A stretch of DNA of 64,000 nt from Shigella phage sb4. The position numbers and the translations under genes are program-made. The notes under the pieces are model-generated. The model ran no database searches and was not told the DNA's origin. It saw only the letters and a list, made by a program, of their open reading frames with translations. The DNA lies in the sequence record PQ666542; one strand, given 5' to 3'. Positions 10,384 to 11,802 of this stretch are shown here, in pieces; within the stretch, counting starts at the first letter, position 1, and each line of letters starts with the position of its first letter.

Positions 10384-11802
10384 TTATGGATAGGTATAGA
10401 TTATACCAGTTTCTAAAGCAGTTTTATGAATGATGTATTCATTACGCGATTCTTGGACATCGACTTCTGTATAGTCTTTTATCATCTTCTGAAGAGTGTA
10501 ACGATGCAAGTAATACTTACTATCTGGGTCGTCAGTTTTCCAATCTTTACCTTCTTCAGTCATTTTTTGGATTTCATCCATAACCCACCAACCGCACCAG
10601 ATATAAGCTGAAGTACGATGTGGAAGAGGATGAACATAAGGCAATTCACCTTCTGGTTCCGGAGCAACTTTATCAGTTACTTGAACTTGACCAGTCGCTT
10701 TAACTGTTTTACTATCATAGTCGGTTGCTGTAACGACAGCAGTAACTTCAATAGTTTGACTTACAACAGATGAGGTGTCAACGGTGTATACGTTAGTTGA
10801 CCCTTCCACAGGAGAAGAATCTTTCTTCCATGAATAAGTAATTTGTGCTGCTTCAGGTGCTCCAGTAACATTAGCTGTAAATGTAGCCGAAGCATCTTGC
10901 TGAACGTTAATAGAAGGAGGAGTCAATGCAATCTGTGGATTCATTGTCTTCTTATTAACAGTCAATGATACTTCATTAGAAGTAACTTCCTTTTCATTGT
11001 AATTTTCTGCAGTTACTTGCGCTACACACTTAACTGTTTTAGCTCCAACTGTGGTAGGAGTATAGTTAAATGTAGTAGTAGTTTCTCCATCGACCAGAGA
11101 ACCGTCAACATACCACTGATACGTAGCAGACGCTCCTGGTGGCTGTGAAGCCAAGGTAGCAGTAAATTGAACTGGGGTTCCAATAACTCCTGCTGGAGGA
11201 TTAGCAGGAGTTACGGCTAACGTAGTTGTCTGTGTTTTCTTATTAACAGTCAGTGACACTTCATTAGAAGTAACTTCCTTTGCATCATAATCTGTCGCGG
11301 TTACTTGAGCTACACACTTAATTGTTTTAACTCCGCTTGCGTCAGGAGTGTAATTGAATGTAGTGCCAGTTGCTTCGCCCACAGGAGAACCGTCAACGTA
11401 CCATTGATATGTAGCGTTTGCACCTGATGGCTGTGAAGCTAAGGCAGCGGTAAATTCAATTGGAGTTCCAATCACTCCAGCATCAGGGCTACCAGGAGTT
11501 ACAGCTAATGTAGTTGTCTGTGTTTTATTTTGAACTGTGATAGTTGTAGTAGCTTCTGCCGTTTCAGCATCAGTATCTGGAATTGTATTTGTTGCAACTA
11601 CTTTAATAGTCTTTTGACCGGCAGGTCCTTTTAGTACATAACTAAAAGTTGCTTCAGTTCCATCTTGTGGAACATCGTCTACAGTCCAAGCATAGGTAAT
11701 AGTTCCACCTCCAGTTTCACCACTGGGTGTAGCAGTAAACTGCTGAGTCTGATCTATAACTCCAGTAGGTGTTTTAGGAGTTATATCAACTGTAAAAGCC
11801 AT
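10384..11802 (-). CDS. hoc: Capsid decoration protein Hoc with four Ig-like domains
   Basis: 472 aa; conserved N-terminus and capsid-binding C-terminus (...IWCGWWVMDEIQKMTEEGKDWKTDDPDSKYYLHRYTLQKM...); about 93-aa Ig unit tandemly duplicated. Confidence 0.85.
   Translation of the reverse strand: MAFTVDITPKTPTGVIDQTQQFTATPSGETGGGTITYAWTVDDVPQDGTEATFSYVLKGPAGQKTIKVVATNTIPDTDAETAEATTTITVQNKTQTTTLAVTPGSPDAGVIGTPIEFTAALASQPSGANATYQWYVDGSPVGEATGTTFNYTPDASGVKTIKCVAQVTATDYDAKEVTSNEVSLTVNKKTQTTTLAVTPANPPAGVIGTPVQFTATLASQPPGASATYQWYVDGSLVDGETTTTFNYTPTTVGAKTVKCVAQVTAENYNEKEVTSNEVSLTVNKKTMNPQIALTPPSINVQQDASATFTANVTGAPEAAQITYSWKKDSSPVEGSTNVYTVDTSSVVSQTIEVTAVVTATDYDSKTVKATGQVQVTDKVAPEPEGELPYVHPLPHRTSAYIWCGWWVMDEIQKMTEEGKDWKTDDPDSKYYLHRYTLQKMIKDYTEVDVQESRNEYIIHKTALETGIIYTYP
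10950..11510 (-). repeat. Tandem direct repeat of about 280 bp encoding duplicated Ig-like domain of Hoc
   Basis: Protein repeat KKTQTTTLAVTP...EVTSNEVSLTVNKKT occurs twice in succession; DNA copies similar. Confidence 0.6.

Follow-up and report, generated by a model that had tools for sequence, protein, structure and literature searches.

The gene examined here, hoc of Shigella phage sb4 (sequence record PQ666542), lies in a stretch of 64,000 nucleotides (nt) that was analyzed as a whole and is called the window below. It encodes a head outer capsid decoration protein of 472 amino acids (aa) in which a middle immunoglobulin (Ig)-like domain is present twice, encoded by an in-frame tandem repeat of 288 nt. 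The protein matched the Hoc-like head decoration family PHROG 1149 with an expectation value (E) of 4.6e-144, another Hoc-like family, PHROG 21694, matched its C-terminus (aa 408-472), and a search of the PDB retrieved Hoc of phage T4 (5vf3/8t1x, NP_049793) with E=2.3e-207. According to tblastn with T4 and ECp13 proteins, the genes are ordered gp23, gp24, rnlB, 24.2, 24.3, hoc, inh, uvsW, which is the T4 neighborhood, and hoc is located between 24.3 and inh, as in T4. The T4 gene has 1131 nt and codes for 376 aa (NC_000866, 110187-111317). The T4 Hoc structure 5vf3 aligned to the window protein in two stretches, query residues 1-189 to T4 residues 1-189 and, with E of about 1e-116, query residues 273-472 to T4 residues 177-376, implying that the window protein equals T4 Hoc plus exactly one 96-aa unit.

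A repeat search identified two 288-nt copies at a spacing of 288 nt (10915-11202 and 11203-11490, 76% ungapped identity), and Tandem Repeats Finder reported a repeat at 10945-11526 with a period of 288, 2.0 copies, 81% matches and a score of 766. When the protein was compared with itself, an offset of 96 residues gave the only strong self-match (103 matches vs at most 59 at any other offset). The repeat is far beyond chance. Placed in register with the codons and domains, the two copies correspond to units that we refer to as A and B, each of 96 aa and in frame (Table 1), which are identical at 231 of 288 nt (80.2%) and 74 of 96 aa (77%). The 57 differing nucleotides are spread such that the longest identical run is 24 nt, and conservation is highest at the unit ends, where the first and last 36 nt are 92-94% identical, vs 69-72% in the center. 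Synonymous divergence (dS) between the units is 0.55 and the ratio of nonsynonymous to synonymous divergence (dN/dS) is 0.27, from which it follows that both units are under purifying selection and have been kept as folded domains.

The domain composition agrees with this arrangement. Pfam matches to PKD, Ig_3 and I-set fall on the middle units and the last Ig domain, and AlphaFold2, run on a shallow alignment of 31 sequences, predicted four beta-sandwich domains, with block values of the predicted local distance difference test (pLDDT) of about 87-96 over residues 1-370 and 82 at residues 371-380. The best Foldseek matches in the PDB were to four consecutive Ig domains, those of Sidekick-2 (Ig1-4), Dscam1 (the N-terminal four Ig) and ICAM-5 (D1-D4), at E of about 1e-13; global template-modeling (TM) scores were low (0.15-0.32) because the angles between domains differ, and these matches therefore support the type and number of domains only. 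The original prediction had named the protein Hoc, had set its 472 aa against 376 aa for T4, had counted four rather than three Ig domains, and had described an Ig-like unit as present twice in tandem. The family and PDB matches together with the gene position, the two gene lengths, the structural and Pfam results, and the repeat searches and self-comparison, respectively, uphold each of these statements; its size for the unit, about 93 aa or 280 bp, was too small, the actual unit being 96 aa and 288 nt.

Table 1. Position of hoc, its domains, its neighbors and selected substitutions in the window
Feature	Position	Strand	Basis or remark
hoc, 472 codons + stop; head outer capsid decoration protein, four Ig-like domains + capsid-binding domain	10384..11802	minus	ATG-start open reading frame (ORF); PHROG 1149; PDB match
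Ig-like domain 1 (aa 1-92), N-terminal fiber tip	11527..11802	minus	85% aa, 89% nt identity to T4 D1; beta-sandwich, pLDDT 87-94
Middle Ig-like unit A (aa 93-188), first copy of 288-nt tandem repeat	11239..11526	minus	Repeat finding; Pfam PKD/BiPBP_C
Middle Ig-like unit B (aa 189-284), second copy of 288-nt tandem repeat	10951..11238	minus	Repeat finding; Pfam PKD at aa 196-265
Last Ig-like domain (aa 285-380), equivalent of T4 Hoc domain 3	10663..10950	minus	85% aa identity to T4 domain 3; Pfam Ig_3, I-set at aa 289-373; block pLDDT 88-94 over residues 291-370
C-terminal domain (aa 381-472), predicted capsid-binding, not an Ig fold	10387..10662	minus	94.6% nt identity to T4, dN/dS 0.07; aligns to T4 Hoc residues 280-376 (PDB 5vf3)
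inh (prohead protease inhibitor), upstream neighbor as in T4	11812..12492	minus	PHROG 1051, E=3.6e-99; 94.7% aa identity to T4 Inh
Gene 24.3-like (DUF2774), downstream neighbor as in T4	10079..10288	minus	Pfam DUF2774, E=1.8e-30; tblastn with T4 gp24.3
Private Hoc residues 347, 441, 445, 455	10762-10764, 10480-10482, 10468-10470, 10438-10440		Three in the capsid-binding domain
In-frame stop codons in gp24, rnlB (4), 24.2, uvsW (3), gp26, gp27 (2), gp28 (2), gp48	within 7487-21616		Relative to ECp13
Stop in gp24 (codon 264)	8276
Stops in rnlB	9798, 9750, 9744, 9174

Each of the two units has its own counterpart at the same position in other phages. Unit A of the window is 99% identical at the nt level to unit 1 of BYEP02 and 92% identical to the first of the three units of UGKSEcP1, while unit B is 100% identical to unit 2 of BYEP02, 99% to unit 2 of sb3 and 97% to the third of the three units of UGKSEcP1. 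Taken together, the window units and their same-position counterparts in other phages share 92-100% nt identity at a dS of 0-0.19, whereas comparisons between paralogous units all give 75-83% nt identity and a dS of 0.55-1.2, and each window unit is far closer to its ortholog elsewhere than to the unit adjoining it (80%, dS 0.55). This contrast implies that the unit types separated several times longer ago than these phages diverged. The duplication is shared with other phages and ancient, rather than a feature of this phage alone. Among 47 pairs of adjacent units in the sampled Hocs, none exceeds 85% aa identity, and hence no fresh duplication was seen.

A tandem in-frame repeat of 288 nt in a gene for which the reference phage T4 has one unit only might be taken for an internal duplication that arose recently in this phage lineage alone and makes its Hoc unusual. 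Such an event is very improbable, since the copies differ at 57 of 288 positions, same-position units that are 97-100% identical to each copy are found in other phages, the 1419-nt gene is common to hundreds of records, and no sampled Hoc has adjacent units above 85% identity. We rejected it on account of the divergence of the copies and their orthology. The single unit of T4 is itself no direct ortholog of either window unit, to which it is 78-81% identical at the nt level, vs 90% for its closest counterpart, unit 2 of 3 of UGKSEcP1. T4 Hoc belongs to the same family of 96-aa middle domains (79-81% aa identity to the window units) and is alike in its first and last Ig domains, its C-terminal domain and its position between 24.3 and inh (Table 1), and it differs in carrying a single unit, of the type called C below, instead of A and B, at 376 rather than 472 aa.

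One could also imagine that the repeat was expanded by mis-assembly and that the true gene has the 1131-nt form of T4, particularly as there are signs of sequence error elsewhere in the window (15 nonsense codons in 25 kilobases (kb) and an excess of transversions, see below). However, these errors are substitutions and not structural changes, and alignments to ECp13 are free of gaps in nearly all genes. Moreover, with a longest identical run of 24 nt between the units, there is nothing for an assembler to collapse or expand, and the A-B arrangement is also found in the independently sequenced BYEP02 and sb3, as it is in many other genomes. An assembly expansion or collapse, which we rejected because of the short identical run and the recurrence in independent genomes, thus has next to no probability.

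The 472-aa protein is one member of a series. Megablast retrieved 678 phage records, many of them matching over exactly 1419 nt at 91-95% identity. In the best 120 protein clusters from a large protein database, a set biased toward long forms, Hoc lengths are quantized at 376-378 aa (79 clusters), 472 aa (29) and 567-570 aa (9), with one, two or three middle units, the 472-aa form being common. When the window and T4 were added to these clusters (122 sequences in all), the middle region was found to measure 96 aa in 77 sequences, 192 aa in 31 and 288 aa in 8; that of the window, at 192 aa, amounts to two in-frame stretches of 96 aa (288 nt). Clustering the 163 units at 15% distance gave three main types with a conserved position. 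The A type, to which the first unit of the window belongs, comes first in 30 of 31 two-unit and in all eight three-unit forms, i.e., in 38 of the 39 multi-unit Hocs sampled; the C type, which is the unit of T4, takes the second position, and the B type, the second unit of the window, comes last. All three types also occur alone, in 376-aa Hocs. Arrangements hence include A-B in the window, A-C in ECp13, A-C-B in UGKSEcP1 and C alone in T4. As the second unit of two-unit clusters, the T4 or C type is found in 22 of 31 cases and the B type in 6, so that most sampled two-unit Hocs, unlike that of the window, are A-C rather than A-B. When 60 evenly spaced rows of the 644 matching phage records were inspected, the peptide at the junction that only a tandem creates was unbroken in roughly the top 23; judged from these sequences, multi-unit forms would make up roughly 40% of the matching records, and the five-Ig form is present in about 23.

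Within this series, the 472-aa Hocs of BYEP02, sb3, pSs-1, JEP6, HP3, ime09 and others have the same five-domain architecture and 1419-nt gene as the window. The five-Ig Hocs of 568-570 aa (UGKSEcP1/2, EC101, YUEEL01, slur03 and others) share the family of units and their order, their units 1 and 3 being the A and B of the window, but hold a C unit between the two that the window lacks. As a separate observation, the hoc gene of BYEP02 (L008, OR757454; 301-1796), which is the closest to that of the window in its middle units, is annotated as two ORFs (439 aa and 59 aa) and spans about 77 nt more than 1419, which points to a small insertion or a frameshift close to where the C-terminal domain begins. 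In addition, some Tequatrovirus-like Hocs, the proteins P0039 (472 aa) and P0053 (567 aa), have a far more divergent middle unit, 56% identical to the neighboring unit, beside a normal A-type unit, which suggests import from more distant phages.

Tequatrovirus Hocs vary in the number of copies of the middle Ig-like domain, and we regard the locus, with high confidence, as the A-B allele, with two units, of this old copy-number polymorphism. The window Hoc is a common, old and shared allele, and the variation it represents is of a known kind. Several points weigh against this reading. The frequencies of one-, two- and three-unit forms are estimates from ranked samples and not full counts. The unit types are fuzzy, with 59 of the 163 units scored as mixed, including unit A of the window itself, and the A/C/B scheme is a simplification of a mosaic. 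The polarity of change may be either way, from an ancestral three-unit form by losses or from an ancestral one-unit form by gains. At the protein level, the C-terminal domain was poorly modeled by AlphaFold2 (pLDDT 36-59) and its binding to the capsid is inferred from homology of sequence; placement on the capsid, fiber length and an effect on adhesion to mucin or cells are likewise all inferred.

If the locus is such a polymorphism, duplication and divergence of the units would long predate the split of the sampled phages, with the A-C-B order being retained, and copy number would shift among one, two and three by in-frame unequal homologous recombination. The nearly identical ends of the units (92-94% in the first and last 36 nt) could be used for the exchange, and an unequal homologous exchange leaves the reading frame intact, since the length of a unit is divisible by three. 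Chimeric units were found by painting with diagnostic sites, a crude method whose 15 sites were defined from eight three-unit proteins and which was used for clear chimeras only and not for counting events. In P0071 and P0084, the single unit starts as A type and ends as B type, and unit 2 of P0013 joins a C head to a B tail. By their sequence, the former two are just what a crossover inside an A-B array such as that of the window would yield. What was found is chimeric units and conserved unit ends; allelic recombination could also yield such mosaics, and the evidence is comparative. The expectation that the tandem repeat would be prone to recombination is supported by this comparison, with copy numbers of one, two and three among close relatives and with the chimeric units.

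A different origin can be envisaged in which co-infecting phages carrying different single-unit alleles (A, B or C) recombined unequally via the conserved ends, so that the copies were divergent from the moment they came to lie in tandem. All three types do exist as single-unit alleles, the unit ends are 92-94% identical, mosaic units are frequent, and T4-type phages are generally known to recombine very actively. Nevertheless, the first unit is of the A type in 38 of 39 multi-unit forms and never of the B type, an order which repeated random stacking would not give, and a single old origin followed by losses is the simpler account of the chimeric single units. We consider such stacking quite unlikely, and it would alter only the story of the origin and not what the locus is. 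A more far-reaching idea starts from the old copy-number polymorphism and takes the A-C-B array to be a tuning device at the level of the population, in which frequent in-frame unequal crossovers in lysates would generate three-, four- and five-Ig variants and chimeras that differ in reach and glycan specificity and on which selection would act in different mucosal environments. Of this idea, the array, the conserved order of its units and the chimeras were observed, while the frequency of switching and the adaptive value are hypothetical, and we would put the idea forward as speculative and rather unlikely. A literature search found no description of such a tuning scheme, which does not show that the scheme is unpublished.

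Variation in the number of Ig domains is well documented for Hoc in general. T4 Hoc is a fiber of 180 Å with three Ig-like domains on a conserved capsid-binding domain, and 650 Hoc homologs have strings of one to ten Ig-like domains (Fokine and colleagues, PMC10385173); a two-Ig variant has been characterized (PMC11853027), and the four-Ig protein of PMBT63 and its retention on mucin have been described (PMC13435897). Searching the literature for four-Ig Hoc and for duplication in Tequatrovirus, we found general statements, PMBT63 and phiPNJ-9 only, and no paper on the 376/472/568 series or on the A-C-B scheme. The scheme is an incremental refinement for Tequatrovirus, since variation in the domain number of Hoc has already been published.

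Two Hocs from other genera, that of Dhakavirus JS10 with 469 aa and that of Klebsiella phage PMBT63 with 468 aa (PMC13435897), resemble that of the window in overall length and in having four Ig-like domains and the conserved capsid-binding domain within the same gene neighborhood. They differ in that their paralogous pair consists of domains 3 and 4 (60% and 79% identical, respectively), which are of the last-Ig type, and identity between their domain 2 and units A and B of the window is only about 30%. A shared origin with the window Hoc was rejected because it is the last-Ig type that was duplicated there, and JS10 and PMBT63 would, judging from these alignments, have reached four Ig domains independently of the window. 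In Bp7, Hoc (282 aa) has two Ig domains, the middle units being wholly absent. The patterns in JS10, PMBT63 and Bp7 imply that gain and loss of Ig domains in Hoc has been repeated and independent. Hocs of phiPNJ-9 (two Ig) and of Serratia phage Muldoon (ten Ig) have in common with the window a capsid anchor that bears a variable string of Ig-like domains (PMC10385173, PMC11853027), and are different in the number and types of domains. In JS10 (L003, NC_012741; 301-1710 and 1755-2007), a second gene annotated as Hoc-like was noted directly downstream of hoc on the opposite strand, which recalls the two-Hoc phages of PMC10385173.

By homology with T4 Hoc, the C-terminal domain would anchor one Hoc at the center of each gp23 hexamer (155 per T4 head), with the Ig domains projecting as a linear fiber. 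Taking the four-domain T4 protein as a model, one extra domain should lengthen the T4 fiber of about 180 Å by about a quarter, and it would add a second surface of the middle type. A longer fiber and altered adhesion are plausible. Domain 1 contains E29 and G33, the residues reported to bind MUC2 in the Hoc of phiPNJ-6 (PMC11150434), and both middle units contain an S-L-T motif (aa 183-185 and 279-281), which has been reported as mucin-binding in domain 2 of phiPNJ-9 (PMC11853027). These residues are leads, at the level of sequence, to mucin binding by the window Hoc.

It could also be that the extra domain is without functional consequence and that the number of domains simply drifts in a protein that is dispensable in the laboratory. 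Hoc is non-essential for growth of T4 (PMC10385173), three copy numbers coexist among very close relatives, and the domain that holds the reported mucin-binding residues differs from phage to phage (PMC11853027). On the other hand, both units are under purifying selection (dN/dS 0.27) with their distinct types conserved across phages, and the Ig domains of Hoc have been linked to adhesion to mucin and cells (PMC11150434, PMC11853027, PMC13435897), although neither the selection nor the adhesion literature implies an effect of copy number itself. We view neutral length variation as possible but somewhat doubtful.

As a discovery the four-Ig Hoc of the window carries little weight, given that hundreds of sequenced T4-like coliphages have the same 472-aa protein. 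For work on display, vaccine scaffolds or mucus adherence with this phage or its Hoc, it is worth knowing that four Ig domains and two surfaces of the middle type are involved. In-frame changes in length can naturally arise at the 288-nt units, and stocks may consequently be heterogeneous at this position. The ordered A-C-B cassette offers a simple typing scheme for Tequatrovirus Hoc, and the natural one-, two- and three-unit variants form a ready set for asking whether fiber length affects adhesion.

The quality of the window sequence deserves comment. With ECp13 (97.1% identical over 25 kb) as the reference, the aligned part of the first 25 kb, about 7000 codons, was found to contain 15 in-frame stops (Table 1), all due to point substitutions and none to frameshifts. 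Several of the affected genes are essential ones for head or baseplate, and the sequence as written cannot be a viable phage genome. In a three-way alignment over positions 1-25000 of the window, the window has 173 private transversions vs 67 and 99 in ECp13 and sb3; its private substitutions are dominated by G>T, C>A, T>A and A>T, and 42% of them fall on codon positions 1-2, vs 22-28% in the relatives. This suggests a substitution error of about 0.4% in that part of the window. Within Hoc, G347V, M441I, P445T and G455E are private to the window at positions that are invariant in 30 relatives, and these four residues probably belong to the same error signal rather than to biology. The repeat, corroborated by other genomes, is unaffected by it.

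Two further differences were noted in the surroundings of hoc and beyond. In T4, the homing endonuclease gene segE sits between inh and uvsW; it is absent here, with no match to T4 SegE in the window by tblastn, and inh is directly followed by uvsW (12493-12548), as in ECp13 and sb3. In the region of gp67, a prohead core protein gene, at 3683-3832, gp67 of ECp13 aligns over residues 1-50 of 82 only and the offset to ECp13 shifts by about 15 nt, which indicates a small indel or a divergent segment in that gene.

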